Assembly: GCA_025453495.1 (NCBI GenBank)
Contig: JALOQM010000001.1
Span: 90,732 to 154,731 of the forward strand
DNA from: Minisyncoccota bacterium
Lineage (GTDB): Bacteria; Patescibacteriota; Minisyncoccia; Phycocordibacterales; UBA9973
Direction of reading: 5' to 3'
Length of the DNA stretch: 64,000 nt
Positions 26,902 through 43,733 of the stretch are shown here, in pieces; position 1 is the first letter of the stretch; each line of letters begins with the position of its first letter. The notes below the pieces were generated by a model. It was given only the letters and a program-made list of their open reading frames with translations, searched no databases and was not told where the DNA came from. The position numbers and the translations under genes are program-made.

Positions 26902-26912
26902 TTTTTTAAATT

Positions 26913-27854
26913 ATGAAACAAAGCGTAATTGAGAGATATCGAAAATACTTACCAAGCAAGCGATTTATTAGTATCACCATCTCAGTATTTGGAGTGTTGG
27001 CACTTATTCTTCTTGGGAGAGAATTTTTTAGTGGAAGAAAAAAAATAAGCGGCGATACCGAAAATACTTCTGCTTCTAATGGCACACTGATCTCAATCAG
27101 CGAACTTGCCGAGAACGACCGCGACAAAGATGGCGTCGCAGATTGGGAGGAAGCGCTCTGGGGCACCGATCCTAACAATACTGATAGCGATGGTAATGGA
27201 ATAAGTGACAAAGTTGAGATTGATGGAAAAAAAAATACTCTTACTCTTTCTTCTGCAGAACAATCAACCGAGGCACTTGATGAAACAGAAGCTTTTTCTC
27301 GTGAATTGTTTATTTCAATTAGTGCACTAAAAGAATCAGGTAATCTCAATGAACAATCAATACGCGACCTTGCGGAAACTATCAGCCAAAACGCAGGTGA
27401 AAAAGAATTCATTACGCCAGTCTATACAAAGGACTCAATACAAACAACAAATGAGGCAAAGGTAGCTGTCACAAACTATCATTCTGCCCTGCTTACCGTT
27501 TTGAAGCGCTATGACGAGAGCGGTATTGGCACTGAGCTCTCAAGTATAGAGGCTGCGCTATCTACAGAAGACCAATCTACTATTACAGATATTGAAAATA
27601 TCGCCAAAAAATACCAATCGCTTGCAAAAGACCTTATAGGCATAACAGTACCTTCTGCGATAGTAGACACCCATCTAGAGCTTGCAAACAGTGCATCTGG
27701 TATTAGTGTCTCACTTACAAACACTGCAAAACTGTTTGACAACGCCATGCTCGGTTTGATTGGTATCTCACAATACGAGAAACAAAGCTCTGTATTTGAC
27801 ACTACATTCTCAAAACTACAAGAGTATTTTAAATCGCATGGTATACTCAAATAA
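26913..27854 (+). CDS. N-terminally membrane-anchored protein with Asp-rich calcium-binding-like repeats and a helical C-terminal region
   Basis: TM helix ISITISVFGVLALILLG; DKDGVADWEEALWGTDPNNTDSDGNGISD (thrombospondin-type-3/dockerin-like DxDxDG). Confidence 0.5.
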   Translation: MKQSVIERYRKYLPSKRFISITISVFGVLALILLGREFFSGRKKISGDTENTSASNGTLISISELAENDRDKDGVADWEEALWGTDPNNTDSDGNGISDKVEIDGKKNTLTLSSAEQSTEALDETEAFSRELFISISALKESGNLNEQSIRDLAETISQNAGEKEFITPVYTKDSIQTTNEAKVAVTNYHSALLTVLKRYDESGIGTELSSIEAALSTEDQSTITDIENIAKKYQSLAKDLIGITVPSAIVDTHLELANSASGISVSLTNTAKLFDNAMLGLIGISQYEKQSSVFDTTFSKLQEYFKSHGILK

Positions 27855-30530
27855 ATGAAATCTGCCACTCGACCAACACGGATACTTGCCGGCATGTTGC
27901 TCGGAACGATAGCTTTGCAGTCGGCTTTTCTTGCACCACCCACAAAAAGTGCTGAAGCGCTCGACTTTACTGCCGCATCACAAGGAGTTCTTTCTGCTAG
28001 TGTCAGTTGTGGTGTAAACAATCTATTGCAAAGAAACCTTTCGAGTAAACTAGGTGGCCTTATTGAAGGTGAGGCGCTAAGTGAAGTGAGTGGTGCAGCT
28101 AGTGTACAAGTAGGCGACAGAGAAGTAAGAAGGCAACAAGAAGCTTTAACATTTAAAGAAACATGTCTAAAAAAAATTGCTCGCGCTGCTTCACAGGTTG
28201 TCTTGAGAGAGATAACGAGACAGACGGTCAACTGGATTAATACTGGCTTCAATGGTCAGCCACTTTTTGTAAGAAATCCACAATCATTCTTTAAGAGTCT
28301 TGCTGATAGAGAAGTACAGCGTTTAACGTCGACATTTAGAAATAGAAATAACTATCCGTTTGGACAATCGTTTATCAGAGGCTACGTGCGTGCAACACAA
28401 AGAACATTTGAACAAAATAGCGTTTATAGTCTTCGAAATTCTCTTGGCGGCTATACACCACAGCAATTTTATAGTGATTTCAATCTCGGTGGTTGGGATG
28501 GGTGGCTTGCAATGACACAACAGCCACAGAATAATCCTATTGGCTTCAGTATAGAAGCATCACGAGAACTCAGTCGTCGTCTTGCAGGTACACAACAATC
28601 AGTGGCACAAGACATACGAGATGAGCTACAGCAAGGAATGGGATTTCTCTCACCAAAAGTCTGTGTCGACCCAGTCGGCTATATTCCACCATCTGGGGCA
28701 GTGATCAGTATTACTGAAGTCGAAAATCTCGCATTAAATGATCCTATTAGTCTCATAAATCAAATGGGTATAACACCAGAGCAGGCAGCAGCAGCAATCG
28801 GTGTTAGTGTAGCTGATCTCCAAGATCTCAATGAAGAACAAATTGCAAGTCTTATAGGTGCCGCACAAACAGCTGGCTATGACCAATATGTTGATCAGTG
28901 TCGCCGCTATGAAACTACAACTCCAGGAGGTGTAGTTTCAAGTCAACTGACCAAAGTTCTTAATATACCAACAGACAATCTCTTACTTGCACCAGAAGAT
29001 CTCGACAGCAGTCTACAAGCAGTCTTTGATGCACTACTCAACCAGCTTTTCAAAAAAGGTCTTGCTTCACTTTCTGATCTTTCAAATGGTGACACTGGTG
29101 GAACTGGAGCAAGTAATATCGAAGTATATAGCGGTGGCGGGTATGGTTCAAATGCAAGTGCGACGCAAAATTTCTCGGCAACTACAAATGTGAATGATCA
29201 ATGGTTCAATCAAAACCGGCAGTTTGACATTACTAATATTGCTTCAATCCAAGAAATTATTGATACTCAAAATGAGTATATACAAGCAATCATTGATGAT
29301 CCAGCAATTGAATCCCCACTACCAAACCCAACAATAAATTCAGCGAACTACCCTCTTCCTGCAGTGCTCTATACAAGCGCAAAAGGTCAAAATTACTGGC
29401 TGAATAGAATAATCCCTGAAATCTATCAACTTGACTACTGTATACCTGGACCACACCCAGGCTGGGAAAATGAAGCACAAGCAAACTTCTTTGCTATAAA
29501 ATCTAAAATTACTGATACAAAAAATCTTAACGAAACAGCGCTTGGCAGGATATACGATACATTTACCTTTGGTTTAGGAACATCAGTTATTAATTTTTGG
29601 ACAAATGTAGCTACACCGGGTGACGTAAATGCTGATGATCTTAAACATATAAGATACTATGGCGCGCTTATACAGAATCTCACAGGCATACAGGCAGAAG
29701 CTGACAAATACATTCTCTCATACGAAAAAGTGATAAAAATTCTTGATACGCTCTTTGAGCGGTTCGTTGTACAAATGAATAGACAGTTTGATCCAGTCAA
29801 TCTCCCCTCATCCGCAGGTGAAGCAGCACTCCTTTATGCCAAAATTCCTGGATATACATCAATTCTTCAGAAAAATACCCAAGACATTGTATCGCTTAGG
29901 GGTGTTGTACGTAGACTTGAAGAAATCAAACAAGAAATAACACTCATCAACACAGAACAAGCGACACTTGATTCGCAGACGCTCTCTGGTGCTATAAGTC
30001 AATCACAAGCTGAAATTATACAAAATCAACTTGACAACAGGCTTGATTTTGCAAAGCGCTCATTTGGTAATCAAGCACAAAATTTTGTCACAGATGCTAA
30101 TACCTTAGCAATAAAAGATCAAACACGGCAGTTAATTAGTGACATTGTGTATATACACAACACCTTACTCAAAGGTCCAAGCGGGTGTGAAGCACAAATA
30201 CAGTTTGTACCAGTCGAATCTCGAGTACGTGCATGGCCGTACCAGAATCCTCATTATTATGATTATCCAAAAGGTGGAAGTGGTACTACACTAGTTGATA
30301 TTGGTAGTCTTAAACTAGACCCAATCACTAACAACCTTATCGGTGCTCCACTACGAAGCTATACGACCTATTATCCATTTATGGAATACTCTTATTTCGG
30401 TAATTCAAACTGGAGTGGCTATCGACCAACCTGGAGTCAGATTTATATTACAGATCTCATGAATTTTGACACCGGTGAAGTAGGTAACACTGTCGGTATA
30501 TTTGAAGCACGACTTATGTTTGGAGAATAG
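27855..30530 (+). CDS. Large secreted protein (891 aa) of unknown function, translationally coupled to the upstream gene (TAA-ATG)
   Basis: Signal peptide MKSATRPTRILAGMLLGTIALQSAFLA; no recognisable catalytic motifs. Confidence 0.55.
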   Translation: MKSATRPTRILAGMLLGTIALQSAFLAPPTKSAEALDFTAASQGVLSASVSCGVNNLLQRNLSSKLGGLIEGEALSEVSGAASVQVGDREVRRQQEALTFKETCLKKIARAASQVVLREITRQTVNWINTGFNGQPLFVRNPQSFFKSLADREVQRLTSTFRNRNNYPFGQSFIRGYVRATQRTFEQNSVYSLRNSLGGYTPQQFYSDFNLGGWDGWLAMTQQPQNNPIGFSIEASRELSRRLAGTQQSVAQDIRDELQQGMGFLSPKVCVDPVGYIPPSGAVISITEVENLALNDPISLINQMGITPEQAAAAIGVSVADLQDLNEEQIASLIGAAQTAGYDQYVDQCRRYETTTPGGVVSSQLTKVLNIPTDNLLLAPEDLDSSLQAVFDALLNQLFKKGLASLSDLSNGDTGGTGASNIEVYSGGGYGSNASATQNFSATTNVNDQWFNQNRQFDITNIASIQEIIDTQNEYIQAIIDDPAIESPLPNPTINSANYPLPAVLYTSAKGQNYWLNRIIPEIYQLDYCIPGPHPGWENEAQANFFAIKSKITDTKNLNETALGRIYDTFTFGLGTSVINFWTNVATPGDVNADDLKHIRYYGALIQNLTGIQAEADKYILSYEKVIKILDTLFERFVVQMNRQFDPVNLPSSAGEAALLYAKIPGYTSILQKNTQDIVSLRGVVRRLEEIKQEITLINTEQATLDSQTLSGAISQSQAEIIQNQLDNRLDFAKRSFGNQAQNFVTDANTLAIKDQTRQLISDIVYIHNTLLKGPSGCEAQIQFVPVESRVRAWPYQNPHYYDYPKGGSGTTLVDIGSLKLDPITNNLIGAPLRSYTTYYPFMEYSYFGNSNWSGYRPTWSQIYITDLMNFDTGEVGNTVGIFEARLMFGE

Positions 30531-30596
30531 TAGTAGTCATATACGTACTATGGGCATACGCGAAATTGCCATACTCTGATACAATAAAGTGTATTA

Positions 30597-33500
30597 ATGA
30601 ATCGTTTAAAACGAAAAATAAAATCTGGCTTTAAACACTTTGTGCTCACGCTAGTGCTTCTTGGCGTGACTTTTGCATCACTATTCTCTAGTCCGCTACA
30701 AGTACACGCAGCAGACAGTATGCAAGAGGTATTTCCAGCTACCTCTTCCAGTGATTCAGGAGTAGGCGATATTCTACCAATTGGTACTGTACCCTATAGC
30801 GGCAGGGATGGTGATGAATATATCATTAATGAAAATAATCTGAGTTTGACTCTTGAAGGTACACCAACTTCTCAGACAGTCACATTCAAAATGAATCTCC
30901 GCCTTGGTGGTGATTCTATACAGGGTATAAATCCAGGTAGAAATGGCAATAACACTCTTTACGACGAGGAAGAAGACCTTGGTAGTTGGCAATCAATTTA
31001 CGACACCAACAGTGATGGTAGTTGGCCACCTACTAGCGATAGTGGCAGAGGAATATGGCTTGATATTGGCACAAGTGTAGCTCCTGGACAAGCAAGTGTA
31101 GGATTTGGCTCACCTCCAATTGCACCTGTTATAAACGATCTTGTGCAAGAGTATGACCTCGCGACTCTCATTAACTTCAGGTACACATCGCAAGAAATTA
31201 ATATCACTGTAGGCACAGCAGCTGGACTTACCCCAAATACACAATACTACGCTCGCATTCGTGTTGAAGAATCAGATTCAACAGACAATGCCTACAGTAA
31301 GATTGTCGGATTCAAAACAGGTGCTGCTGGTGATACCGGAGAACAAAGCGAGGAAATCACAGCAAGCCTGACGCAATCTGAAATAAACAATGAAGGACAA
31401 CTTATTGATCTTCTTGACTGCGGTATAAGCACTATATTTACTGATTGTTTGGTTATAGGTTTCTATTACCTTTTTTATGTCCCATCATCATGGATTCTCC
31501 GTGCTGCTGGTTGGTTGCTTGACGCATTCGTTACATTTTCAATCAGTACCAAAGTATATAGTGATCCAAGTTTTATAACAGAAGGATGGAAGATCGTCCG
31601 TGATATAGCAAACATATTTTTCATTTTTGTCCTTGTATATATTGCATTTAAGCTAATACTTGGCGTTAGTGGCTCTGATGTGAAACGTATGCTGACCACT
31701 ATTATCATAGTCGGTGTCCTTATAAACTTCAGTCTATTTTTTACCAAAGTCGTTATCGACTCATCAAATATACTGGCACGCATTTTTTATCAACAGATCC
31801 AAATCACTGGTACTGAAGGTAGGGCAATCACAGATGCCTCAAAACTAGGTGTGGAAGAAAAAAGTCTCTCACAAGCTATTGTCAGTGGTGTAAGTGTAAA
31901 CAAAATGCTCTCTGATGAGACTATTACAAAACTACGTACTATGAATTGGCATAGTACTAGTTCAACATTTTTGATTATTATACTTGGCTTAATTGTCAAT
32001 CTCGTTACTGCTTGGACATTATTTATGAGTGCACTGTTTTTTATAGGGAGGATTGTCGCCTTGTGGGTAGCTATGATATTTTCAGCATTCGCCTTTATGT
32101 CAAACATTGCACCTGATTGGTTTAAACAAATTCCTATGATTAATTGGAGTAGTTGGTTCTCTGACCTTTTAAAGGTTTCCTTTTTAGCGCCGATCTTTCT
32201 GTTCTTTATTTATTTGATTATTGCATTTGTGAATAGCAAATTTCTCGATGGGTTACTGCTTAAAGCAAACGATTTTGATTTTACACAACTCCTCGTCTCT
32301 ATTATGCTCCAGTTTGGAATTTTAATTGTCCTTATACAAAAAGCAAAAGATATTGCTGAAAAACTTGCAGGAGACACAGCTGGTGCCGCTGTAAGTGCTA
32401 TAAAAAAAGGAGCTTCCGCTGTTGGTTCAGTAGTTGCTGGAGCAGGACTTGCTGTAGCAACTGCTGGAGCAGGATTTGCACTTCGTGGCACACTTGGCAG
32501 ATATGCCGCAGATCAGATGAATTCTGAAGAATACAAAAAGAAAATGGCCGAACGCATAGAAAAAGGTGGTGTTCGTGGTTGGCTTGCACAACGAGAACTC
32601 AAATCATATGAAAGTTTCAGTAATGCAAGTTTTGATGCTCGTGGATCAAAAAGATTTCAGAGTGCTCTCACTAGGTTTGGTGGTGCAACTGGTATAAATA
32701 TAAACACTGGAACTGGACACGAGGGAGGACATCTAAGTGATAAAGAAAAGAAAGAAAAAGAGCATCTTGCTATGGTAGAGCTCCTGCGATCAAAGAAAAG
32801 CGATGAGGAGTGGATGGAGTCACTCAGCGAGGATGATCCAGAAAAGAAAAAGTACATGGATGCAAAAAAGAAATACGAGACTGAGAAAGCTGTGTTTGAT
32901 GAGTATGAAAACAAATACAGAGAAGCATACGAGGCTGCAAAAAACTTGCCTGGCTTTAATCTTGACAAATTTAGAATTGACTATGAAAAAGCAAATGGAA
33001 AAGCACCAGATGCGCCAAAGGAAGTCAAAGCATCAGACTATGTTGATGTTTCAAAAATAAACAAAGAGCGCGAACTTAAATATGCAAGATACCTTAGAGA
33101 GAATACATTGCGCGCAAAGATAGAGCGTGCAACAGGTGATGGAGATCTGCTTGGCACGGAGCGTAGCGCACAATTGTCAGCAGCCAAAAAGATCGAAAGA
33201 GAAGCAGCAATGACTGAGAAATCATCAGTAAGTATGTCGAAACTTGCTCGCGCCGCAGAACAAGCAGAATACGATATTGGTCGCCTCAATAGAGAAATTG
33301 AAGCACATCAAACTAAATACTCTGGTACGCCTGAAGAAGTAAAACAAAAAATTACTCTTGAGATAAATACGGCAAAGAATGAACTGAAAGATATTGATCT
33401 AAATGCTGAAATGATGAAACAAAAATATGAAAGTGTAAAAAAGAAAGGTGGAAATACTGCGAGACAAGCTTATATTGCATGGCAAGCTGCTGAAGACAAG

Positions 33501-33632
33501 AGAAAAGAGAAACAAGAAGAAATCGCGGCTCTTGGTAGGGTAACAGAAGATCAGAAAAAACGTATAAGCGAACTTGAAAAGAAAGAAGGAGATCTTGAAA
33601 AGCTCCGAGAAAAGATAGACAAACTTAACTAG
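30597..33632 (+). CDS. VirB6/TrbL-like polytopic inner-membrane protein (1011 aa) with an N-terminal secreted domain and a K/E-rich coiled-coil C-terminal tail of about 450 aa
   Basis: Signal peptide; about 270-aa exodomain; at least 7 TM helices (e.g. IFFIFVLVYIAFKLILGV, TIIIVGVLINFSLFF, FLAPIFLFFIYLIIAF); Gly-zipper AGAGLAVATAGAGFA; C-terminal heptad-like KKKYE/EKKEGDLEK repeats. Confidence 0.55.
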   Translation: MNRLKRKIKSGFKHFVLTLVLLGVTFASLFSSPLQVHAADSMQEVFPATSSSDSGVGDILPIGTVPYSGRDGDEYIINENNLSLTLEGTPTSQTVTFKMNLRLGGDSIQGINPGRNGNNTLYDEEEDLGSWQSIYDTNSDGSWPPTSDSGRGIWLDIGTSVAPGQASVGFGSPPIAPVINDLVQEYDLATLINFRYTSQEINITVGTAAGLTPNTQYYARIRVEESDSTDNAYSKIVGFKTGAAGDTGEQSEEITASLTQSEINNEGQLIDLLDCGISTIFTDCLVIGFYYLFYVPSSWILRAAGWLLDAFVTFSISTKVYSDPSFITEGWKIVRDIANIFFIFVLVYIAFKLILGVSGSDVKRMLTTIIIVGVLINFSLFFTKVVIDSSNILARIFYQQIQITGTEGRAITDASKLGVEEKSLSQAIVSGVSVNKMLSDETITKLRTMNWHSTSSTFLIIILGLIVNLVTAWTLFMSALFFIGRIVALWVAMIFSAFAFMSNIAPDWFKQIPMINWSSWFSDLLKVSFLAPIFLFFIYLIIAFVNSKFLDGLLLKANDFDFTQLLVSIMLQFGILIVLIQKAKDIAEKLAGDTAGAAVSAIKKGASAVGSVVAGAGLAVATAGAGFALRGTLGRYAADQMNSEEYKKKMAERIEKGGVRGWLAQRELKSYESFSNASFDARGSKRFQSALTRFGGATGININTGTGHEGGHLSDKEKKEKEHLAMVELLRSKKSDEEWMESLSEDDPEKKKYMDAKKKYETEKAVFDEYENKYREAYEAAKNLPGFNLDKFRIDYEKANGKAPDAPKEVKASDYVDVSKINKERELKYARYLRENTLRAKIERATGDGDLLGTERSAQLSAAKKIEREAAMTEKSSVSMSKLARAAEQAEYDIGRLNREIEAHQTKYSGTPEEVKQKITLEINTAKNELKDIDLNAEMMKQKYESVKKKGGNTARQAYIAWQAAEDKRKEKQEEIAALGRVTEDQKKRISELEKKEGDLEKLREKIDKLN

Positions 33633-33649
33633 CCAGATAAGAAAAAATT

Positions 33650-34339
33650 ATGATAGATTTTACTGAACAACAAATGGAAGAAAAATTCAATGCGGTCCCG
33701 CGCTCGGTGCGCGCGTTGATCTTTGATCCTATAGTTGGAGAAAAAACACAAAGTATCGGCAAGAAGTATGGATTACTGCTTGATGCATCAAGTGACTTGC
33801 TTGCAATTGTGCAATTTGCTCTTTTTGGATTCATTACTCAAGAAGATATCAAAAAAGAAATTATCGAAGCACTCAAAGTAAGTAATACTGTAGCATCTGC
33901 CATTACTGTAGATATAAAAAACGAAATAGTAGCGCCTATTTTTGAAAAAATGCGCAAGCAACAAGAAGAAACTACTACAGAAAAAATAACTGACGAAGAA
34001 ATTGCACTCCTTCTTACTGAACCTGAAGATGACAGTAGTGGTTTTGCGCAAGCTGGTATTGAAATACAATCAGAGAAACCTTTCATTGGCGACGAGGAAA
34101 AGGAAGCCTTTGAGGAGCATAAGGTATTGCTCAAGCAAATAGAACGTACTACCTCGCCAATACAAACGTCAAACGAGATACAGCGAGGTATTACAGGTGA
34201 AAAATTTTCTGGTAATTTCAAAATTCCTCATGAAGAGCGAGATTATTCGATAAATAAGCAGTCTGACGCAGATACAGTTTCACTCAAAGTAATAAGGCAT
34301 CGTGACCGTGTCGATCCATACCGAGAACCTCTTGAATAA
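33650..34339 (+). CDS. Acidic cytoplasmic hypothetical protein (229 aa)
   Basis: Intact ORF in operon; hairpin aaaatgcccgtagtttgcgggcatttt immediately downstream. Confidence 0.45.
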   Translation: MIDFTEQQMEEKFNAVPRSVRALIFDPIVGEKTQSIGKKYGLLLDASSDLLAIVQFALFGFITQEDIKKEIIEALKVSNTVASAITVDIKNEIVAPIFEKMRKQQEETTTEKITDEEIALLLTEPEDDSSGFAQAGIEIQSEKPFIGDEEKEAFEEHKVLLKQIERTTSPIQTSNEIQRGITGEKFSGNFKIPHEERDYSINKQSDADTVSLKVIRHRDRVDPYREPLE

Positions 34340-34404
34340 CAAAATGCCCGTAGTTTGCGGGCATTTTGCTTTGCCGGCAGTGGAAGATACCATATAATGA
34401 ATAT

Positions 34405-34842
34405 ATGCGATTTGAAGTGCCGCAATTCATTGACGTCGAAGACAAGATTTTCGGCCCATTCACTTTTAAGCAATTTTTATATCTTGCCGGAGGAGCGGGT
34501 ATCATCTATGTCCTTTGGAAACTTCTCCCAGCGATCATCGCCATACCACTCATACTTCCTGTCGCTGGACTCGCACTTGCTCTGACATTTTACAAAGTAA
34601 ATGGTCGACCATTCGCACAAACTATTGAGTCTTGGATGAAATACATCACTCAGGACAAACTCTATCTTTGGAAAAAAAGAGAGCGCAGAAAGACGCCAGA
34701 AAAAACACCAATGCCTGAGACAGAACAAGTACCAATTCAAGCACCACGTCTTTCTGGGAGTAAACTCAAAGACATCGCATGGAGTCTTGATGTTCTTGAT
34801 ATGCAAGAGAACGCAAAGCTCGATAAACTCGACACAAGATAA
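34405..34842 (+). CDS. PrgI-family-like small membrane protein of Gram-positive-type T4SS (functional VirB3 analogue)
   Basis: MRFEVPQFIDVEDKIFGPFTFKQFLYLAGGAGIIYV then a second TM helix; classic PrgI-family N-terminus and two-TM topology directly upstream of VirB4; start moved to ATG 34405 because the upstream in-frame Met lies inside the preceding hairpin. Confidence 0.6.
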   Translation: MRFEVPQFIDVEDKIFGPFTFKQFLYLAGGAGIIYVLWKLLPAIIAIPLILPVAGLALALTFYKVNGRPFAQTIESWMKYITQDKLYLWKKRERRKTPEKTPMPETEQVPIQAPRLSGSKLKDIAWSLDVLDMQENAKLDKLDTR

Positions 34843-34849
34843 CTAACAT

Positions 34850-35488
34850 ATGGCTATCAACGCAAAAGCATCACAAGAATTTGTACCTGTTAAAGAAGTG
34901 CGCGACGGTATCGTCGTCTTAAAAGATGGCAGCCTTCGTGCTATTTTGCTTGCTTCATCAATCAATTTGTCACTCAAGTCATATGAAGAACAACAGGCAG
35001 TTCTTTTACAATTTCAGAACTTTCTCAATTCAATAGATTTCTCAATGCAGATCGTCGTCCAATCTCGCCGACGTGACATGCGTCCATATCTTACACTACT
35101 TGAAAACAGAATGCGTGAACAAACTGAACCACTCTTGAAAGTGCAGACGCGCGAGTATATTGAATTCATCAAAAGCTTCACGGAGTCAGTGAGTATTATG
35201 ACAAAAAACTTTTTTATCATCGTTCCGTATTCATCAGTATCATTGCCTTCAGCTGAGGGTGTTATAAAAAAACTATTTGGTGGCACAAATAAAAAAACAG
35301 TAGCTCAAGAAGAATTAGCAAGCTTTGAAGAAAAACGTACACAACTTGAGCAAAGAGTTGGCACTATCACACAGGGACTTTCCCGTATGGGTGTCAGAAC
35401 AGCACAGCTTGGTACTGAGGAGGTTATAGAACTTTTCTATAAGATATTTAATCCGGGAGAAATAACTGCAAGTATTAAATCACAATAA
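34850..35488 (+). CDS. virB4: VirB4/ConE/PrgJ N-terminal domain encoded as a separate ORF (first part of a split VirB4)
   Basis: EFVPVKEVRDGIVVLKDGSLRAILLASSINLSLKSYEEQQAVLLQF matches the conserved Gram-positive VirB4 N-terminus; TAA stop 1 nt before the ATG of the ATPase ORF. Confidence 0.6.
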   Translation: MAINAKASQEFVPVKEVRDGIVVLKDGSLRAILLASSINLSLKSYEEQQAVLLQFQNFLNSIDFSMQIVVQSRRRDMRPYLTLLENRMREQTEPLLKVQTREYIEFIKSFTESVSIMTKNFFIIVPYSSVSLPSAEGVIKKLFGGTNKKTVAQEELASFEEKRTQLEQRVGTITQGLSRMGVRTAQLGTEEVIELFYKIFNPGEITASIKSQ

Positions 35489-35489
35489 T

Positions 35490-37538
35490 ATGGGCTTTTT
35501 TGATACATTGTTTGGGAATAAGTCAAAAGTAAAAGAAGCGGAAAAAACGCCAGTGCTTTCTGTCTTACCTGAACAAATCTATGAATCAGCAACCCTCGAA
35601 TTCCAAGACATCATCGCACCATCTGCTCTTAAAATAGAGTCGAAATCTCTAAATCTTGGCGAGAAAATAACACGCACGTTTTTTGTTATTTCCTATCCAA
35701 GATTCCTGACCGATAATTGGTTCTCACCGATAATAAACCTCGACAAGATTTTTGATGTATCAATCTTTATTCATCCTATAGATTCACAGAAATTGCTTCG
35801 CGATTTCCAGAAAAAAGTCGCAGAAGTTCAAAGTCAGATCAACACCAGAGAAGCAAAAGGACTTGTCAGAGATCCAATGCTTGATACTGCTTACCGTGAT
35901 CTTGAGGCGCTTAGAGACAATCTCCAACAGGCGCAAGAACGGGTCTTTGAGGTTGGACTGTATATCACAGTATATGCTGACAATGAAAATGAGCTTTTCA
36001 AAGTTGAAAATGAGATAAAAACTATCCTTGAATCACGCCTTATTTATCTAAAACCAGCACTCTTTCAGCAAGAAGAAGGATTTAAGAGTGTTTTACCGAT
36101 CGGTAATGATCTTCTCTCAGTACACCAAAAACTCAATACTGAGCCGCTTTCGTCTATTTTTCCATTTGTGTCCTTCGACCTCACAAGTGACAATGGGATC
36201 CTTTATGGCGTAAATCGACACAATGCGTCACTTGTTATCTTTGATCGTTTCTCCCTTGAAAACTATAATTCAATTATCTTTGCAAAGTCCGGAGCTGGAA
36301 AGTCGTATGCGACGAAGCTTGAGATTATCCGTACACTTATGTTTGATACTGACGTGATCGTTATCGACCCAGAACGTGAGTATGAGTATCTTGCTGAAGC
36401 AGTCGGTGGACGCTATTTCAATATAGCGCTTTCTTCTGATCACCACATCAACCCATTTGATCTACCAATTCCACGTGAAGATGAAACGACAGCTGACGTG
36501 CTTCGCTCAAACACAATCAATCTTGTCGGCTTGTTTCGTATCATGCTCGGCGGACTAACACCAGAAGAGGACGCGCTCATAGACAGAGCGATTACAGAAA
36601 CATATGCAATAAAAGATATTACTGCTGATTCAGATCTCAGTGACATAGAACCACCACTGTTGTCTGATTTTGAGCTTGTTCTTGCTGGTATGGAAGGAAG
36701 CGAAAAAGTACTCCAACGTCTGACAAAATATACTAAAGGATCTTGGTCAACCTTTATAAACCGCCCATCAAACGTCGACATCAACAAGAAATTTGTCGTC
36801 TTCTCTGTGCGCGACATGGAAGATGAGTTGAAGCCTGTCGCTATGTATATTGTCACGCACTTCATCTGGAACGAAGTGCGTAAATCAATAAAAAAGCGCC
36901 TACTTGTCGTCGACGAAGCATGGTGGATGATGAAATCAGAAGACACCGCTTCATTTCTCTACTCAATCGCAAAAAGAGGGCGTAAATACTATCTTGGCCT
37001 CTGTACTATCACCCAAGACGTTGGAGACTTCATGAGAAGTCCCTATGGTGTGCCTATTGTAACAAACTCTTCATTGCAGCTTCTCCTTAAACAATCACCG
37101 TCATCGATTGATCTTCTACAGAAGACATTTAATCTCACCGATGAAGAAAAATATCTTCTTCTTGAATCTGCCGTTGGTGAGGGCATCTTCTTTGCAGGAC
37201 TCAAGCATGTTGCCATAAAGATCATTGCCTCATACACCGAAGATCAAATTATTACCTCAGATCCATCACAAGTACTTGCTATAAAACGCGCTAAGGAAGA
37301 ATTTGAAGCATCTGAAACGCAAAGAGAACAAGCTATTGTTTCAGAGACAGAAATAGTAAGAGCGCAACCATTTGAAACAACAATAGCACCTAAAACAATA
37401 CCTGAGACAGAAGAAACAATAGACGCAGCTGAAATGACACCTGTCCGACAAAAAACAAAGGAAGAGTCACAACTTGATGAGCTTGCCATCCTTGATGAAG
37501 ACCTCAAAGAAATCGAAGAGGATATTGTCGGAAAATAA
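35490..37538 (+). CDS. virB4: VirB4/TrsE/CagE-family T4SS ATPase (central and ATPase domains)
   Basis: Walker A IIFAKSGAGKSYATK; HINPFD motif; Walker B LLVVDEAWWMM; RKYYLGLCTITQDVGDF motif. Confidence 0.85.
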   Translation: MGFFDTLFGNKSKVKEAEKTPVLSVLPEQIYESATLEFQDIIAPSALKIESKSLNLGEKITRTFFVISYPRFLTDNWFSPIINLDKIFDVSIFIHPIDSQKLLRDFQKKVAEVQSQINTREAKGLVRDPMLDTAYRDLEALRDNLQQAQERVFEVGLYITVYADNENELFKVENEIKTILESRLIYLKPALFQQEEGFKSVLPIGNDLLSVHQKLNTEPLSSIFPFVSFDLTSDNGILYGVNRHNASLVIFDRFSLENYNSIIFAKSGAGKSYATKLEIIRTLMFDTDVIVIDPEREYEYLAEAVGGRYFNIALSSDHHINPFDLPIPREDETTADVLRSNTINLVGLFRIMLGGLTPEEDALIDRAITETYAIKDITADSDLSDIEPPLLSDFELVLAGMEGSEKVLQRLTKYTKGSWSTFINRPSNVDINKKFVVFSVRDMEDELKPVAMYIVTHFIWNEVRKSIKKRLLVVDEAWWMMKSEDTASFLYSIAKRGRKYYLGLCTITQDVGDFMRSPYGVPIVTNSSLQLLLKQSPSSIDLLQKTFNLTDEEKYLLLESAVGEGIFFAGLKHVAIKIIASYTEDQIITSDPSQVLAIKRAKEEFEASETQREQAIVSETEIVRAQPFETTIAPKTIPETEETIDAAEMTPVRQKTKEESQLDELAILDEDLKEIEEDIVGK

Positions 37539-37570
37539 GAAAAGCAATGTTTTAATGGTATACTCTCTGT

Positions 37571-37996
37571 ATGGATGAGATATCAGCTAATACTACAAGC
37601 GATCAAATACAACCAAGTGCAACAGCACAAGACGATACTATAACACAAATGACAACCGTGAGCGCTATTGAAGAGGAGGTGGCGAAAGAACTCGGCACTG
37701 GTGATACAGTTGCTCCTGCAGATAGCTTACAAGACAAAGCAAAAAAACTTGCTACTGCTCGCCTTGCCCTTGAAGAGAAAATTATAGCTCTTGAGCGAGA
37801 TGTCAAAGCAAAGCTTGCGGCGCTAAAAGAGCTCAAAGCGGCACTAGAAGAAGAGATAGGGAAGATCAAAGAACTCAAAGAAACTGAAGGAAAAATCGAT
37901 ATACAGTTACAGAAAATCGATGATCTTGAGAAAAAGCGAGAAGAAATCGAGAATGAAATAAAAAACATCGAAGCCACTACAGCAGGTGTCTCATAA
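37571..37996 (+). CDS. Acidic coiled-coil protein (141 aa)
   Basis: ALEEKIIALERDVKAKLAALKELKAALEEEIGKIKELKE heptads. Confidence 0.45.
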   Translation: MDEISANTTSDQIQPSATAQDDTITQMTTVSAIEEEVAKELGTGDTVAPADSLQDKAKKLATARLALEEKIIALERDVKAKLAALKELKAALEEEIGKIKELKETEGKIDIQLQKIDDLEKKREEIENEIKNIEATTAGVS

Positions 37997-38022
37997 CTGC
38001 ATATAAGTGATATAATCAAAAC

Positions 38023-39033
38023 ATGCATCGTATCGGCAAAATCATACTCCTTGGCACACTCTTGATGGGCGTACTTTTGTTTTCCCCAGTTACTATAGAT
38101 GCACAATTTACTGGAAATACTGACATCACAGTAAATGTTAGTCCTACTATTCCAGGTCCAAATGAAGAAGTAGTGGTGACTCTCACTAGTCTTTCAGTAA
38201 ATCTTGATACAATTACTATTAGGTGGGAAATAAATGGAAAAACAGAACTTAGTGGTGTTGGAGAGAAAACGTTGACATTCAAAACTGGTGGAGTCGGATC
38301 AACAACGACAATTGAAGCTTCAATTGATGTTCCAGGTGTGCCGACCATAACCAAGCGTATAGTTATCCAACCACTAGCAATCGACCTGCTTTGGGAAGCA
38401 ACTGACTCGTATACACCTCCGTTTTACAAAGGAAAAGCACTGCTTCCGTCTGAAGGAGTAGTAAAGGTAGTTGCCATACCTGAGATTAAAACAACTAGCG
38501 GAAAGATGCTAAAACCATCTGATTTTACTTATACATGGAATCGCAATCAAAGGGAACAAGCCATTAACTCAGGAAATGGAAGAAATTATTTTTCTTTCCA
38601 GCAGAATTACCTGACAAATGAAGAAGTTATAACAGTAACAGCAAAATCAGTTTCTGGTAACTATCAAGCAACAAAGAAAGTAACAATTACACCTCGTGCC
38701 TCAAAAGTGTTATTCTATGAATTTGATCCAGCGCTTGGAGTCAGATATGAACGCATGCTTCAAGATATTACTGGTGTACAGGTAAATAAAGAAGGACTAA
38801 TTATTACCGCTGAGCCGTATTATTTTTCAGCAAATACTGCTGATACAGCACAGCTTTCATTTGAATGGAATGTGAACAATGAGGAAATTACGTCGCCAAC
38901 AAAAAAACATATGTTACCAGTACAAGTAACCACAAACGGCGTAGCAGAAATTCGAGTTAAGACAGAAGCTAGGATGAAATTATTCCAGGAGGCAACACGG
39001 TCGCTGTTCGTTAATCTTGAAGCAAATGAGTAA
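38023..39033 (+). CDS. Secreted beta-rich (Ig-like repeat) protein, 336 aa
   Basis: Signal/anchor MHRIGKIILLGTLLMGVLLFSPVTIDA; repeated VTxTxK beta-strand patterns. Confidence 0.5.
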   Translation: MHRIGKIILLGTLLMGVLLFSPVTIDAQFTGNTDITVNVSPTIPGPNEEVVVTLTSLSVNLDTITIRWEINGKTELSGVGEKTLTFKTGGVGSTTTIEASIDVPGVPTITKRIVIQPLAIDLLWEATDSYTPPFYKGKALLPSEGVVKVVAIPEIKTTSGKMLKPSDFTYTWNRNQREQAINSGNGRNYFSFQQNYLTNEEVITVTAKSVSGNYQATKKVTITPRASKVLFYEFDPALGVRYERMLQDITGVQVNKEGLIITAEPYYFSANTADTAQLSFEWNVNNEEITSPTKKHMLPVQVTTNGVAEIRVKTEARMKLFQEATRSLFVNLEANE

Positions 39034-40135
39034 TATATTTTTAGTAATTCGTATTCTAGCAATTAGCAGCTCTTTATTAAGTGTGCTTCTTTTCCAAACC
39101 GTAGATTTGGTTTTTGCTCAGGTGCCAACAAGTGACACTACTTCAATTGTAAAAGAAATTTGTGACAACAATATTGACGATAATGGCGATAATCTTGCAG
39201 ACGGAAAAGATCCTCAGTGTTATTTTCTTCTTGCTCCTCTCCCTGGTCTTTCAACAATCAATACAACACAAGGGCTTCCTGCATATCTAAAGGTATTATA
39301 TCGACTAGCAATTGGTATTGCTGGTGTTATCGCAGTAGTTATCATCGTATGGGCAGGTATAGAATATATGATGAGTGATGTTGTGTTTAAAAAAGATGAT
39401 GCAAAGCAACGAATTTGGAACGCACTCGGTGGTCTTGTCTTGCTTATCGGATCATTTGTATTACTCAATACAATCAACCCTGATCTTCTTAATCTAAATC
39501 CTCGGGTGCCCATTAAGGAAATCAATATTGAAGAGGAAGTAGGTGGCGATACTGGTGATGTATTTATCGCAAATTATACTTCTCCGTCAGGAATCTTCTA
39601 TCCACGAAGTGGTGGAGCATCACAAATAAGTCGCATTGTCAGCAGTCTTGATGGAAAAGTTACCTACCGCTTTGGCGGTAAAGGCGGCCCAGCACCGTAT
39701 CCAAGTGATACAAAGATGTGCGAAAATGGTCCGTGCAAAAATTACTGCCCACCGGGAACTGTTTGTCTTGATTGCTCTGGATTTATAAATTATATATATG
39801 TTGGTGCAGGTATTGCACCTATTAATGGCGGGACAGGAACGATATTTTCGTCATCTGAAAAAATTACAAAGATAGAAAACAGAATTATTAACGGAGAAAC
39901 TGCTACGTACGTCAACGATATAGCTCTTAAAACAGGGGATCTTTTAGGATGGGTGGCAAACGAAAATGGAAATAAGGTCGGACATGTTGTTATGTATATT
40001 GGTAATGGTCAAGCAGTAGAATCTACCTCAGGTGGGAATGGGAGAAGCTCTGGTAATGGGTTAAAAAAATTAGAGGTAACACAAAAGTATCTTCGAAAAG
40101 AAGTCCAGCTTTTGACAAGAGTTAAAAGACTATAA
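39017..40135 (+). CDS. Fusion of a pilin-like (VirB2/TrbC-like) two-helix hydrophobic hairpin with a C-terminal NlpC/P60 (C40) cell-wall peptidase
   Basis: Long signal peptide; hydrophobic hairpin LAIGIAGVIAVVIIVWAGIEY ... ALGGLVLLIGSFVLL; NlpC/P60 catalytic motifs CLDCSGFINYIY (Cys) and GDLLGW...GHVVMYIGNGQAVES (His); Asp-rich CDNNIDDNGDNLADGKD loop. Confidence 0.7.
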   Translation: MKQMSNIFLVIRILAISSSLLSVLLFQTVDLVFAQVPTSDTTSIVKEICDNNIDDNGDNLADGKDPQCYFLLAPLPGLSTINTTQGLPAYLKVLYRLAIGIAGVIAVVIIVWAGIEYMMSDVVFKKDDAKQRIWNALGGLVLLIGSFVLLNTINPDLLNLNPRVPIKEINIEEEVGGDTGDVFIANYTSPSGIFYPRSGGASQISRIVSSLDGKVTYRFGGKGGPAPYPSDTKMCENGPCKNYCPPGTVCLDCSGFINYIYVGAGIAPINGGTGTIFSSSEKITKIENRIINGETATYVNDIALKTGDLLGWVANENGNKVGHVVMYIGNGQAVESTSGGNGRSSGNGLKKLEVTQKYLRKEVQLLTRVKRL

Positions 40136-40144
40136 TTAATCATT

Positions 40145-41716
40145 ATGAACAAGCGACAGCGTCTTATACTTATCACAGCAATAGTGCTCCTTGCTCTATG
40201 TGGAGTCTTTGTTTTCTTTTCTATTAGCCAAAAAAGAGTTTCTCTTGAAACTCCAACACTGCGTGAGTTTTTTACTTTTGGAAGATCAAACCAAATTCAA
40301 ACAGAAAGGATGAGTGAACCATCTTCACAAAGAGGAGAAGAAATCGATTCAGAAGCAAGAGGAGGTTCTTTTTTTCTAAAACAAATTACGTCTCGTCCTG
40401 TTGCAGGGGCTGCGGCTGTCAGTGTATCGCGCAAAATAATTAATACAGAAATAAATACAACAGAAAATGAAACTACTGCGCAATGGACAAGAGACCTTAA
40501 GGAAGGTGACACTGGTGAAGATGTTAGAGAATTACAGATATTTTTGAACACCAATATAGAACCTAGTGGTGGTAGTGATAAAACAACCATTGTCGCTATA
40601 AAAGGTGCTGGATCTAAAGGAAATGAGACGACGTATTTTGGTACAGCAACTACAGCTGCGCTTCGTATTTTCCAAGAAAAATTCGAAATAGAAAGCACTG
40701 GGATTGCTGACGAAAGAACAAGAAAAAAAATATTTACACTACAACAAAGTATTCCAAAAGAAGAAAAAGTAACTGCAGTGCGATACGTTGATAAGAGAGA
40801 TGGGACTATTTTTCAAACATTTATAGATACTATTGAAGAAAAAAAAATATCTGGGACCAAGATTCCGAAAATACATGAAGCGTATTTTGGCAAAGATGCC
40901 CTAACTACACTTTTGCGTCTTGTGGAAGAAGATGGTGTAACTATTGCAACCTACGCTGGTACACTTCCAAAGATTATTGAGGGAGGGGATTCAATTACAA
41001 ACATGAGAGGTTCTTTTATAGAAAGAAATATAGAATCACTTTCTTTTTCTCCTGATAAAAGTAAATTCTTTTACCTTGTGAGTTCTGGTCAATTTACAAA
41101 TGGGATCATTGCAAGCGCAACAGGTGGATCAAAGATACAAGTATTTTCATCTCCATTTAGTGAATGGTTACCTCAATGGGTAGATGATCGTACTATCGCA
41201 CTAACAACAAAACCAGCAGCATCTTTTGGTGGTTATCTCTATACGCTTGATACAAAAACCAAAGAATTCAAAAAAGTGATGAGTGAGGTACCGGGACTTA
41301 CCACCCTCTATAGTCCGAATGGTAAAAAAGTACTATACTCTCGGGCAACAAAAAATAGAAACAGCTTTCTTACTGCGATATACGATACAGAAACAAAAAA
41401 ATCTACTGATCTTGATGTGCACACACTTCCTGAAAAATGCGTATGGTCTAATGATAGTATTACACTCTACTGCTCTGTACCTAAATATATAAACGGAGGA
41501 GAGTACCCGGACGTGTGGTATCAAGGAATACAATCGTTTAGTGATATGATCTGGCAAATAAATACAAAAGACGGAATTCTAAAAAGAGTGTCTGATCCTT
41601 TCCAAGAAGCAGGAATCGAAATTGATGGAATACATCTTTTCCTTGATACTGAAGAATCAAATCTTTTTCTCACCAATAAAAATGATTCTTCTCTATGGAC
41701 ACTCACACTCAACTAA
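40145..41716 (+). CDS. Membrane-anchored protein with a peptidoglycan-binding domain (PG_binding_1-like) and a C-terminal TolB-like beta-propeller
   Basis: TM helix LILITAIVLLALCGVFVFF; GEDVRELQIFLN...TTAALRIFQEKFEI PG-binding helix pair; YSPNGKKVLYSR / TAIYDTETKK propeller blades. Confidence 0.6.
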   Translation: MNKRQRLILITAIVLLALCGVFVFFSISQKRVSLETPTLREFFTFGRSNQIQTERMSEPSSQRGEEIDSEARGGSFFLKQITSRPVAGAAAVSVSRKIINTEINTTENETTAQWTRDLKEGDTGEDVRELQIFLNTNIEPSGGSDKTTIVAIKGAGSKGNETTYFGTATTAALRIFQEKFEIESTGIADERTRKKIFTLQQSIPKEEKVTAVRYVDKRDGTIFQTFIDTIEEKKISGTKIPKIHEAYFGKDALTTLLRLVEEDGVTIATYAGTLPKIIEGGDSITNMRGSFIERNIESLSFSPDKSKFFYLVSSGQFTNGIIASATGGSKIQVFSSPFSEWLPQWVDDRTIALTTKPAASFGGYLYTLDTKTKEFKKVMSEVPGLTTLYSPNGKKVLYSRATKNRNSFLTAIYDTETKKSTDLDVHTLPEKCVWSNDSITLYCSVPKYINGGEYPDVWYQGIQSFSDMIWQINTKDGILKRVSDPFQEAGIEIDGIHLFLDTEESNLFLTNKNDSSLWTLTLN

Positions 41717-41719
41717 GCA

Positions 41720-42226
41720 CTATTGTGAAGTATAAGAAATTATAATTCTTCTTTGCTCACCTTCTCCTACAGATTCAGTCTTGATATATTCTCTTTCTGA
41801 TAAAAATTCATGAACAATACGCCGCTCAAAAGAGTTCATCGGGTCAGTTGAGATAGTTGAAGCAAAAAACTTTGCTCGTTCAGCGAGCATGTGTGCCACG
41901 CTTTGTATTTCTTCGATTCTTTTTTGCTGATACCCGTCAATATCAATAATCAGATTTTCTTCTAGTGCCTTATCTTTTCTCATATACTGAACCTGCTTTT
42001 TGTTGATGATCTTTTTTACTAGGTGATTAATACAGGCAAGTACTTCTCCATGCTTGCCGATTAAAGAACGAGGATCAGACACAGTAACACAATAGAGCAA
42101 CGTATGCTCTTTGAGACTATGGGGCACGGGCACTACCTCAACACTAGTAGTAGGAAAAGATAGTTTTTCAAAGAAATCACTGATAGTGCTTCGTATTTCC
42201 TTCTGTGCATCCATGTAACTACTCAA
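41720..42226 (-). CDS. jag: Jag/KhpB RNA-binding protein (KH plus R3H domains)
   Basis: R3H motif ERRIVHEFLSER; conserved position downstream of yidC. Confidence 0.8.
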   Translation of the reverse strand: MSSYMDAQKEIRSTISDFFEKLSFPTTSVEVVPVPHSLKEHTLLYCVTVSDPRSLIGKHGEVLACINHLVKKIINKKQVQYMRKDKALEENLIIDIDGYQQKRIEEIQSVAHMLAERAKFFASTISTDPMNSFERRIVHEFLSEREYIKTESVGEGEQRRIIISYTSQ

Positions 42227-43001
42227 TAACTTTTGCTTGTACAGACACAGTGTTTCCTTCTGTCTTTTTTGCTAACCTGCGACGTATTATGATTTCTTGA
42301 AAAATAGTGAAAATATTACTTGTTGCCCAATAAAGTGCTACTGCTCCAGCAACTTGATATGAAATAATTCCGACGAAAATAGGAAGTACATACTGCATTT
42401 GCATTTGCATACTTTTAGCAAACTGTTTTTGAAAAGATCCGTCATTCGTTTGTTGCTTTTGTTTGGGAAGTGTTAATCTAGCCTGTATAAACTGGGTGAC
42501 AGCTGCCAAAATAGCAAGAACAATACTTTTCCCACTCATATCAAGAAATCCTAGAAATTGTGTATTTATAACAGGCGGAAAGGAGACACCCTGATACAAA
42601 AGACCAGCATCCAAAGAAAGTGCTCCAAGAAAAACCTTATAGAGAGCAAAAATGACAGGAAGTTGGAGAAGTACTAGTAGGCATCCTGAAAACGGATTAA
42701 CTTTATATTGTTTATATAATTCAAACGTTCTTCTAGATTGCTCAAGCTTATCAGTATATTTTTCTTTTATTGCATCAATCTCTGGCTGCAGGTTGCGAAG
42801 ATGTATTTGGCTTTCAATCGATTTTTTAGCTATAGGATACAAGATAAAACGAACGAGTATTGTTAAAAGAATAACAGCAACACCAATATCTCCTCCAGGG
42901 ATTAAAGATACCAAAAAAGCAAGAGCGTTGTAGAGCGGTTCGTAAAAAATATTATTCCAAAGAGTAGTAATCATTTGCCTATTGTATCGAAAAAAGAGCA
43001 A
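42219..43001 (-). CDS. yidC: Membrane protein insertase YidC (short monoderm type)
   Basis: 5-TM YidC/Oxa1 core, conserved synteny with yidD-rnpA-rpmH. Confidence 0.85.
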   Translation of the reverse strand: MLFFRYNRQMITTLWNNIFYEPLYNALAFLVSLIPGGDIGVAVILLTILVRFILYPIAKKSIESQIHLRNLQPEIDAIKEKYTDKLEQSRRTFELYKQYKVNPFSGCLLVLLQLPVIFALYKVFLGALSLDAGLLYQGVSFPPVINTQFLGFLDMSGKSIVLAILAAVTQFIQARLTLPKQKQQTNDGSFQKQFAKSMQMQMQYVLPIFVGIISYQVAGAVALYWATSNIFTIFQEIIIRRRLAKKTEGNTVSVQAKVIE

Positions 43002-43015
43002 AAATCAATCCCATT

Positions 43016-43237: not shown

Positions 43238-43239
43238 TT

Positions 43240-43587: not shown

Positions 43588-43598
43588 GAATAAAAAGC

Positions 43599-43733
43599 TT
43601 ATACAGAAAGCTTCTTGCGGCCTTTTTGTCTTCGCGCTTTAAGTACTTTTTTGCCGTTTTTTGTTTTTGTTCTGACGAGAAAACCGTGTGTAGTCTTTCT
43701 TTTTCGCTTCGAGGGATTGTATGTTTGCGACAT
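43599..43733 (-). CDS. rpmH: 50S ribosomal protein L34 (44 aa); not in the ORF track
   Basis: Manual translation of the minus strand: [44 protein letters not shown], matching the L34 consensus. Confidence 0.85.

Follow-up and report, generated by a model that had tools for sequence, protein, structure and literature searches.

The window analyzed here, a stretch of 64,000 nucleotides (64 kb), contains a co-oriented cluster of type IV secretion system (T4SS)-like genes on the + strand (26539..41716), delimited by the Pfam assignments of its flanks and by a gene order that recurs in related loci. Pfam matches identified ksgA (25743..26531) before the cluster and jag-yidC-rnpA-dnaA-dnaN (41720..46589) after it. 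The GC content of the cluster was only slightly below that of the flanks, and most of the other scanned open reading frames (ORFs) of at least 110 aa in the window were ordinary housekeeping genes. The scan of these ORFs against Pfam and NCBIfam revealed no relaxase, VirD4-type coupling protein or integrase, and no flanking repeats were found around the cluster in the window.

Within this cluster, we characterized a 145-aa ORF that runs on the + strand from an ATG at 34405 to a stop at 34842 (34405..34842) and whose product has the N-terminus MRFEVPQFIDVEDKIFGPFTFKQFLYLAGG, as described in a previous interpretation made from the letters alone (the sequence-only reading). The JGI gene call and Pfam label on the source contig correspond to the same product. 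An alternative longer reading starts at TTG 34366; however, ATG 34405 was taken as the true start because homologues align from M-R/Q-F and the upstream extensions are not conserved as protein. The product matched Pfam PrgI (PF12666) with 44.8 bits against a gathering score of 27 (E 1.8e-11; aa 7-91, model positions 4-87 of 91), which was the HMM search proposed in the sequence-only reading, and NCBI names an identical protein 'MAG: PrgI family protein [Candidatus Pacebacteria bacterium]', indicating a PrgI/VirB3-family inner-membrane subunit of a T4SS. We found 6555 homologues carrying PF12666, typically ~60% identical, in Nomurabacteria, Wolfebacteria and other Patescibacteria. PrgI of pCF10 itself scored 32.6 bits on the same model, lower than the 145-aa protein, and showed no signal against it in direct comparison (BLASTP E 14; hhalign probability 0.6%), so that family membership rests on the Pfam HMM. 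A search of PDB sequences with a 50-sequence PrgI profile gave one chance match only (an NDH subunit, E 1.6). PHROGs gave no match to the protein, and a phage origin of the gene was rejected on this ground.

Hydropathy, structure prediction and conservation together point to a two-helix transmembrane (TM) hairpin at aa 21-40 and 43-62 (34465..34590, + strand). Specifically, a single hydrophobic block of 39 aa (aa 27-65) was detected by Kyte-Doolittle hydropathy, and an AlphaFold2 (AF2) model built with 50 homologues resolved this block into the two predicted helices (pLDDT 85-96). The turn of the hairpin is L41-P42, and Pro42 was invariant among 50 aligned homologues. In the model, a short helix (9-16) precedes the TM pair and another helix (70-83) follows it. 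The C-terminal 72 residues contain 15 Lys/Arg, which fits a cytoplasmic location. Members of the PrgI/VirB3 family are small (about 10-15 kDa) with two TM helices and then an alpha-helix (PMC12857230), a description that the 145-aa protein is predicted to fit; further traits listed for the family are a gene beside virB4 and 1:1 binding to the VirB4 N-terminal domain, with anchoring to the membrane. Both the HMM match and the two predicted TM helices, the absence of which had been named in the sequence-only reading as grounds for its refutation, were thus found. A Foldseek search of the model against the PDB found nothing, as expected for a small helical hairpin.

The alignment of homologues showed that the most conserved part of PrgI is the soluble N-terminal motif rather than the TM segments. 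Conservation also marks a C-terminal motif, P-R-L-S-x-S-K-L-K-D-I-x-W-S-L-D-V-L-D, at aa 114-132 (34744..34800, + strand), which the Pfam PrgI model does not cover and which is preceded by a variable linker rich in Lys. P114, L116, L121, W126, S127, L128 and D132 were invariant among the 50 aligned homologues, and WSL[DGN] was present in 113 of 120 homologues. The motif was looked for but not found in pCF10 PrgI, pSK41 TrsC, and the Pontibacillus and Embleya homologues. AF2 placed a helix at 118-143 with low confidence. We speculate that this motif may be a docking peptide.

The next ORF begins 7 nt past the PrgI stop and encodes a 212-aa TrsD-like protein (34850..35488, + strand). One nt past this ORF begins the gene of a 682-aa VirB4 ATPase of the CD1110 type (monoderm, MPF-FATA), which is without the N-terminal domain (35490..37538, + strand). 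The ATPase scored 380.9 bits on NCBIfam conju_CD1110 (cutoff 325), at model positions 182-733 only. In addition, it aligned to residues 228-772 of pCF10 PrgJ (3e-44), which RefSeq assigns to the CD1110 family, to pSK41 TrsE (TrsE 44-617 with 49-578 of the ATPase; 3e-38), and to the VirB4 C-terminal domain in PDB 4AG5 (4.7e-42). The 212-aa protein matched CD1110 at positions 3-132 (E 1.7e-7), so that the two proteins tile this model (positions 3-132 and 182-733), as well as VirB4_plasma at positions 102-236 (E 1.3e-11) and VirB4_CagE at positions 4-179 (E 2.3e-4). Its match to NCBIfam TrsD/TraD had an E of 1.1e-8, with 35.1 bits against a cutoff of 200. The precomputed JGI Pfam label of the protein is PF26593 TraC-like, JGI names its homologues 'type IV secretory pathway VirB4 component', and the NCBIfam SCO6880 family touches both PrgI and the 212-aa protein. 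These profile matches indicate that VirB4 is split here, with its N-terminal domain encoded as a separate, free-standing TrsD-like protein. Note that HMMs alone link this protein to TrsD, as no similarity to pSK41 TrsD was detectable by BLASTP (E 0.12-0.17). BLASTP against PrgJ gave nothing significant, and hhalign of the TrsD profile with full-length PrgJ gave nothing. In sequence searches of the PDB, the single sequence had no match and a 39-sequence profile had chance matches only; structural evidence is at most compatible with the N-terminal-domain assignment.

The sequence-only reading had placed PrgI directly upstream of VirB4 and had taken this as the prgI-prgJ order. Given the intervening 212-aa gene, PrgI adjoins VirB4 only if the latter is regarded as split, and the two-gene order has to be replaced by PrgI, TrsD-like protein and shortened VirB4, as in trsC-trsD-trsE. 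On the other hand, the assignment to a PrgI/VirB3-like protein of a monoderm T4SS was upheld by the Pfam match, the predicted hairpin, the CD1110 ATPase and the NCBI name, and the monoderm (MPF-FATA) type of the system by the ATPase, which passes the CD1110 cutoff and aligns with PrgJ.

Other members of the cluster were assigned with varying certainty. A 1011-aa polytopic membrane protein is encoded at 30597..33632 (+ strand) and is a candidate VirB6 equivalent by position and topology only. Hydropathy indicated a signal/TM segment at the N-terminus, then an exposed domain, hydrophobic segments within aa 269-629 and a charged C-terminal tail. The protein had no match in Pfam and only weakly resembled a TrbL/VirB6-like protein from a Pontibacillus plasmid (E 0.007); its gene is conserved just upstream in related loci. 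Directly upstream of PrgI lies the gene of a 229-aa soluble protein that ends with DPYREPLE (33650..34339, + strand). This protein matched nothing in Pfam, NCBIfam or PHROG and was recognized as a conserved cluster member from synteny, as 61 of 65 colinear loci have an ORF ending with DPY[RKH]E.. ahead of PrgI. Downstream of VirB4 is the gene of a 372-aa protein (39017..40135, + strand) with two parts, a hydrophobic hairpin resembling a VirB2-type pilin (segments at aa 89-124 and 132-158) and a cell-wall hydrolase domain of the NlpC/P60 type. The latter was supported by 33.8 bits on NlpC_P60 (gathering score 23), and the pilin matches were both sub-threshold, namely T4SS_pilin with 23.8 bits (26.6 needed) and the Mbov_0395 pilin-like family with 25.3 bits (40 needed).

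We next compared the locus with known systems. The same three-gene layout is found in TrsC-TrsD-TrsE of the Staphylococcus plasmids pSK41/pGO1 (MPF-FATA, pGO1 subclass), in which the pSK41 proteins have 135, 227 and 672 aa, compared with 145, 212 and 682 aa here. TrsE is a VirB4 with the same starting point as the 682-aa ATPase, TrsC is likewise a small two-TM protein and aligns with PrgI (E 2e-4), and a VirB2/CagC-like pilin gene accompanies them. However, pSK41, unlike the present cluster, is conjugative and carries a relaxase and VirD4, and TrsC lacks the WSLDVLD motif and scores 19.9 bits on Pfam PrgI, below the threshold. Enterococcus faecalis pCF10 PrgI/PrgJ belong to the same Pfam (PF12666) and VirB4 (CD1110) families, and the gene for the small two-TM protein is likewise located upstream of the ATPase gene and downstream of a VirB6-like gene (PMC12857230). 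In pCF10, however, PrgJ is a single 796-aa protein including the N-terminal domain, prgI overlaps prgJ directly with no 212-aa gene between them, and PrgI, at 117 aa, has no counterpart of the C-terminal extension.

The R388 structure shows VirB3 wrapped around the VirB4 N-terminal domain and in contact with VirB6 via its TM helices (PMC9259494). R388 TrwM/VirB3 (cryo-EM structures 7O41 and 8RTB) has a short N-terminal helix and two TM helices, to which the helices 9-16, 21-40 and 43-62 of our PrgI model would be equivalent. PrgI differs by the additional helix 70-83, the Lys-rich linker and the conserved C-terminal motif. Note that R388 is a diderm conjugation system, and its VirB3 showed no sequence or Foldseek match to PrgI.

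A 349-aa 'PrgI family protein' encoded by an Embleya plasmid consists of a PrgI domain fused to a TrsD-like domain. The former (aa 13-99) scored 64.6 bits in Pfam and matched our PrgI with an E of 1e-6, and the latter (aa 136-249) matched the 212-aa protein with an E of 7e-19. Downstream of this fusion are genes for a truncated VirB4-like ATPase, a T4CP and a relaxase. The actinomycete protein (SCO6880 family) is thus one plasmid-encoded polypeptide, whereas two adjacent chromosomal genes are present here; as a natural fusion, it gives direct evidence from sequence that PrgI and the TrsD-like protein probably act together. An unfused order was seen on a Pontibacillus plasmid, with genes for a VirB6-like protein, a 116-aa PrgI/TraL-like protein, a TrsD-like protein and a CD1110 VirB4.

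To place the cluster among its relatives, we compared 80 species-representative genomes encoding a PrgI relative with 46-62% identity. Each of the 80 species loci with flanking DNA had PrgI beside the TrsD-like gene and VirB4, and 75 of them were colinear. The full order in most loci was ksgA, the 313-aa, 891-aa and 1011-aa genes, PrgI, TrsD, VirB4 and the 336-aa gene, followed by the pilin/NlpC and PG-binding genes, jag, yidC, rnpA and dnaA. That dozens of species have the cluster at this position, with ksgA on one side and yidC-rnpA-dnaA on the other, indicates vertical inheritance rather than a mobile element.

These features agree with published accounts of the T4SSs of Patescibacteria. 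According to a recent survey (PMC12102498, Quinonero-Coronel et al. 2025), VirB4 of Patescibacteria is of MPF-FATA ancestry, TrsD is the component most often associated with it, and PrgI/VirB3 homologues are in most cases encoded beside virB4. The survey describes these systems as having VirB2-like pilins and no relaxase, and as being located near dnaA, dnaN, rnpA and ksgA in Paceibacteria. In the window we found a VirB4 of the Patescibacteria clade, a TrsD-like protein and PrgI, with dnaA, dnaN, rnpA and ksgA nearby, no relaxase, and a pilin-like domain that remained sub-threshold (23.8 against 26.6 bits). The cluster is an instance of this chromosomal T4SS, and nothing in it differs from the published account; what goes beyond the parts of the survey consulted is the C-terminal motif and, as described below, the probable leaderless promoter and the flips of the gene seen in some relatives. 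The same system is represented by SEML1_0006-0019 of Southlakia epibionticum (PMC10633639), the source of the only genetics on this machine. In this organism, epibiotic growth requires the T4SS genes (PMC10633639, PMC12857230), the PrgI and TrsD homologues are among the essential genes according to PMC12102498, and no relaxase or coupling protein was recognized in the cluster (PMC10633639, PMC12857230). Taken together, the 145-aa protein is very probably the VirB3-equivalent (PrgI family) inner-membrane subunit of a chromosomal, non-conjugative Patescibacteria T4SS, here of the class Paceibacteria. Since the correct name is present at NCBI and the system is described in the 2025 survey, this identification is correct but ordinary; it confirms a Patescibacteria-type T4SS of monoderm (MPF-FATA) ancestry, both of which are already in the annotation and the survey.

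We then examined how prgI may be transcribed. Immediately after the 229-aa gene, RNA folding predicted a perfect hairpin (34340..34368, + strand) with the stem AAAAUGCCCG/CGGGCAUUUU and flanking pairs (-19.1 kcal/mol, z = -5.5 vs shuffles). This hairpin looks like a terminator that separates PrgI from the upstream genes; it was not flagged by a consensus terminator scan because the U-run lies inside the stem. It is followed by the best promoter match of the region (10/12), a sigma-70-like TTGCCG-16 nt-TATAAT (34371..34398, + strand), whose TATAAT ends 6 nt before the PrgI ATG, and a Shine-Dalgarno (SD) sequence is absent. A -10-like hexamer ending 5-9 nt before the ATG was found in 39 of 78 related loci, compared with 3-9 of 78 at control offsets, and an SD-like motif was found upstream of PrgI in none of the 78. 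Thus, prgI appears to have its own promoter and transcription unit, and the proximity of the promoter to the ATG together with the absence of an SD sequence implies a leaderless or nearly leaderless mRNA, so that prgI mRNA is probably leaderless with the transcription start site predicted from these signals.

Several other explanations of the locus were considered. Short two-TM proteins can yield spurious HMM matches, and together with the lack of pairwise similarity to pCF10 PrgI this would allow the ORF to be a generic small membrane protein whose PrgI match is an artefact of hydrophobicity. However, conservation peaks in the soluble N-terminal motif and not in the TM segments, the score exceeds the curated threshold by 18 bits, and the gene adjoins TrsD/VirB4 in every one of the 80 loci, with a fusion to TrsD known from Embleya, by which the artefact is effectively refuted. 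It is also highly improbable that the protein belongs to the TcpE/ConC branch of VirB3-like proteins (MPF-FA; Tn916/ICEBs1/pCW3-like) instead of the PrgI branch. One homologue (P0008) carries both Pfam labels, and the 145-aa protein itself has a weak match to Pfam TcpE (PF12648; E 0.012, aa 18-87), but at 16.6 bits this does not reach the gathering score of 29.9, whereas PrgI is exceeded with 44.8 against 27, and its partner ATPase belongs with CD1110/PrgJ, scoring only 17 bits on the TcpF model. A conjugative function, as stated in the sequence-only reading, found no support. If the cluster were part of an integrated conjugative or mobilizable element, PrgI would serve intercellular DNA transfer as in pCF10, and indeed all recognizable parts are homologous to monoderm conjugation genes, and the closest non-CPR relatives are plasmid-borne beside a T4CP and a relaxase. 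Against this, the window has none of the relaxase, VirD4-type coupling protein, integrase and flanking repeats looked for, the GC content is only slightly under that of the flanks, and the cluster is chromosomal, by the origin genes, in the same ksgA to yidC-rnpA-dnaA placement in dozens of species, as likewise reported in PMC12102498. We consider a conjugative role improbable, and an integrative conjugative element was rejected on the basis of the missing relaxase, T4CP and integrase in the window and the cross-species synteny.

An uptake device for DNA or host-derived molecules, in which PrgI would anchor an import motor rather than an export motor, is less easily dismissed but still rather unlikely. 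Reviews speculate that the pilus and T4SS may take up host molecules (PMC12857230), ComEC and RecJ genes are present in the same window (5050..9130), and T4SS loci of the class ABY1 adjoin competence genes (PMC12102498). However, nothing in the window connects the competence and T4SS gene sets, and deletion of comEC in S. epibionticum abolishes competence but not viability, while the T4SS is essential (PMC12857230), indicating no functional link between them in that organism. Note that this alternative bears on the direction of transport; the role of PrgI would be unchanged.

For the non-conjugative Patescibacteria T4SS, which we prefer, the machine probably serves host interaction, that is, protein export or pilus-based exchange, and not plasmid transfer, by analogy with S. 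epibionticum. Export or pilus exchange is likelier than conjugation because the T4SS of S. epibionticum is essential for epibiotic growth and no relaxase or coupling protein was recognized there. By analogy with the R388 structure, the PrgI hairpin would sit in the cytoplasmic membrane beside the VirB6-like polytopic 1011-aa protein, and its cytoplasmic parts, namely the N-terminal VPQFIDxEDKIFGPFTFKQF, the helix 70-83 and the WSLDVLD motif, would hold the ATPase at the membrane. As the VirB4 N-terminal domain is a separate TrsD-like protein here, PrgI most likely binds TrsD, for which the Embleya fusion and the conserved synteny give indirect support. PrgI would thus anchor TrsD at the membrane, and TrsD would dock the truncated VirB4 hexamer, forming a three-protein joint. 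The correction to a split VirB4, with PrgI probably working through the TrsD-like N-domain protein, is the useful outcome and is relevant to modelling the inner-membrane complex of an essential, uncharacterized machine. A more specific proposal, which we put forward only tentatively and regard as doubtful in its entirety, is that the VirB3-VirB4 joint was rebuilt in Paceibacteria as three proteins, in which the C-terminal motif tethers TrsD non-covalently and leaderless prgI sets stoichiometry or timing. If so, a lineage-specific PrgI motif would replace the covalent link of the actinomycete PrgI-TrsD fusions, and through independent leaderless transcription of prgI the cell could adjust either the stoichiometry or the timing with which the motor is attached, in a T4SS on which the epibiotic lifestyle depends. 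The conserved C-terminal motif provides a concrete, testable handle on the PrgI-TrsD interface.

The orientation of prgI varied among the related loci. Five of the 80 loci have prgI at its usual position but encoded on the other strand. They are spread over a VirB4 tree, and the nearest neighbours of each are colinear, indicating that the flips arose several times. A -10-like box still directly precedes the ATG in at least two of the flipped copies (L005 and L025), and a hairpin is located just downstream of the flipped gene in 4 of the 5 loci. Phase variation through flipping of prgI is therefore unlikely, as the flipped copies are still expected to be expressed. In many relatives, inverted arrays of ~30-35 nt bracket the PrgI gene; these are built of species-specific 7-nt repeats and are absent in the window. 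In several relatives, such arrays also flank an inserted ORF of the 23S_rRNA_IVP family, located between the upstream gene and PrgI.

We compared the stretch immediately 5' of the PrgI gene (window 34371-34404; the gene itself, encoding a 145-aa VirB3-family protein, occupies 34405-34842 on the forward strand) with the 60 nt 5' of PrgI in L001-L080, the loci of 80 species-representative genomes that encode a PrgI relative. A TATAAT-like -10 box ending 5-9 nt before the PrgI ATG was found in 39 of 78 loci, as compared with 3-9 of 78 at control offsets, and the box ended exactly 6 nt from the ATG in 26 loci. A Shine-Dalgarno-like motif was observed in none of the 78 loci within the 60 nt inspected. 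Judged from these upstream sequences, PrgI seems to be produced from a leaderless mRNA.

The gene directly 5' of PrgI encodes a 229-aa protein (33650-34339) that gave no family match and whose homologues were barely detectable in relatives by tblastn. On the other hand, PrgI was preceded in 61 of 65 colinear loci by an ORF that terminates with DPY(R/K/H)E(P)xx-stop, indicating that the 229-aa protein is a fast-evolving but constant member of the cluster with a conserved C-terminal tail. The distance from the 229-aa-type ORF to PrgI was bimodal, being either 190 nt or less, or 413-525 nt; the longer class probably reflects a cassette of the type encoding 23S rRNA intervening-sequence proteins (IVP) inserted between the two genes.

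Related loci also carried intergenic arrays, each consisting of 4-5 imperfect 7-nt repeats, the repeat sequence varying by genome; at the sites examined, the arrays formed inverted pairs approximately 30-35 nt long. In total, 138 such arrays were counted in 1.26 Mb, distributed over 42 of the 80 loci, and 18 of them ended at most 40 nt from the PrgI ATG. An inverted partner of the array near PrgI lay 350-450 nt upstream in at least 8 loci, and in 5 of these the pair surrounded an ORF of 103-119 aa; the three enclosed ORFs that were tested were members of Pfam 23S_rRNA_IVP (100-116 bits). PrgI itself lay between inverted array arms in L054 and four other loci. Examples lie within 9563-9994 and 16460-16565 in L033, 9574-10528 in L054 and 9544-9979 in L003, and were also found in L051, L055, L068, L077 and L078. 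Note that no 7-nt repeat array was present at the PrgI site of the window.

In five of the 80 species loci, the PrgI gene occupied its usual place on the opposite strand (L005 10001-10411, L014 10001-10390, L025 10001-10396, L038 2304-2693, and L020 5338-6397, where PrgI and the TrsD-like gene were both inverted). The five flipped loci were scattered in the VirB4 tree and their nearest neighbours were colinear, indicating several independent single-gene inversions. A hairpin with perfect arms of 13-30 nt lay directly 3' of the gene in four of the flipped copies (L005, L014, L020 and L025); in place of this downstream hairpin, L038 had a 24-nt inverted repeat on both sides of the gene. The inverted 7-nt repeat arrays could drive flips of the PrgI gene or RNA processing.

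The TrsD-like protein, a VirB4 N-domain homologue encoded downstream of PrgI (34850-35488), matched PHROG 2666, annotated as "terminase large subunit", with an E value of 1.3e-9, its residues 25-124 aligning to positions 4-89 of the 555-position profile. Either PHROG 2666 is a misleadingly named VirB4-like ATPase family, or the two have an N-domain in common. A 349-aa protein of Embleya sp. plasmid NZ_CP108778 (L081 5596-6645), annotated as "PrgI family protein", in fact consists of two fused parts, a PrgI domain and a domain resembling TrsD and hence the VirB4 N-domain. Similarly, in the NCBIfam SCO6880 family (477 positions), the N-terminal end matched the window PrgI and the C-terminal end the window VirB4.

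The VirB6 position, 5' of PrgI, is taken by the gene for a 1011-aa protein (30597-33632). The N-terminal part of this protein comprises a signal/TM segment and an exposed domain of ~230 aa; hydrophobic segments follow within residues 269-629, and the remaining ~380 aa form a charged tail. No VirB6/TrbL HMM match was found for it. In a 372-aa protein (39017-40135), a pilin-like hydrophobic hairpin of the VirB2 type, with sub-threshold matches to T4SS_pilin (23.8 bits) and the Mbov_0395 family (25.3 bits), occurs together with an NlpC/P60 peptidoglycan hydrolase domain (33.8 bits). Such a protein would join a VirB1-like activity to a pilin-like module in one chain.

The window carrying the T4SS also contains genes of other envelope machines discussed for Patescibacteria, namely ComEC (5050-6549), RecJ (7385-9130) and a type IV pilus/T2SS-E ATPase (53711-55408). 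In addition, the mechanical call of a CCA-adding/poly(A) polymerase-family ORF (11809-13416, reverse strand) overlaps tRNA-Arg(TCG) (13358-13430) on the same strand; the coding sequence probably begins downstream of the called start.
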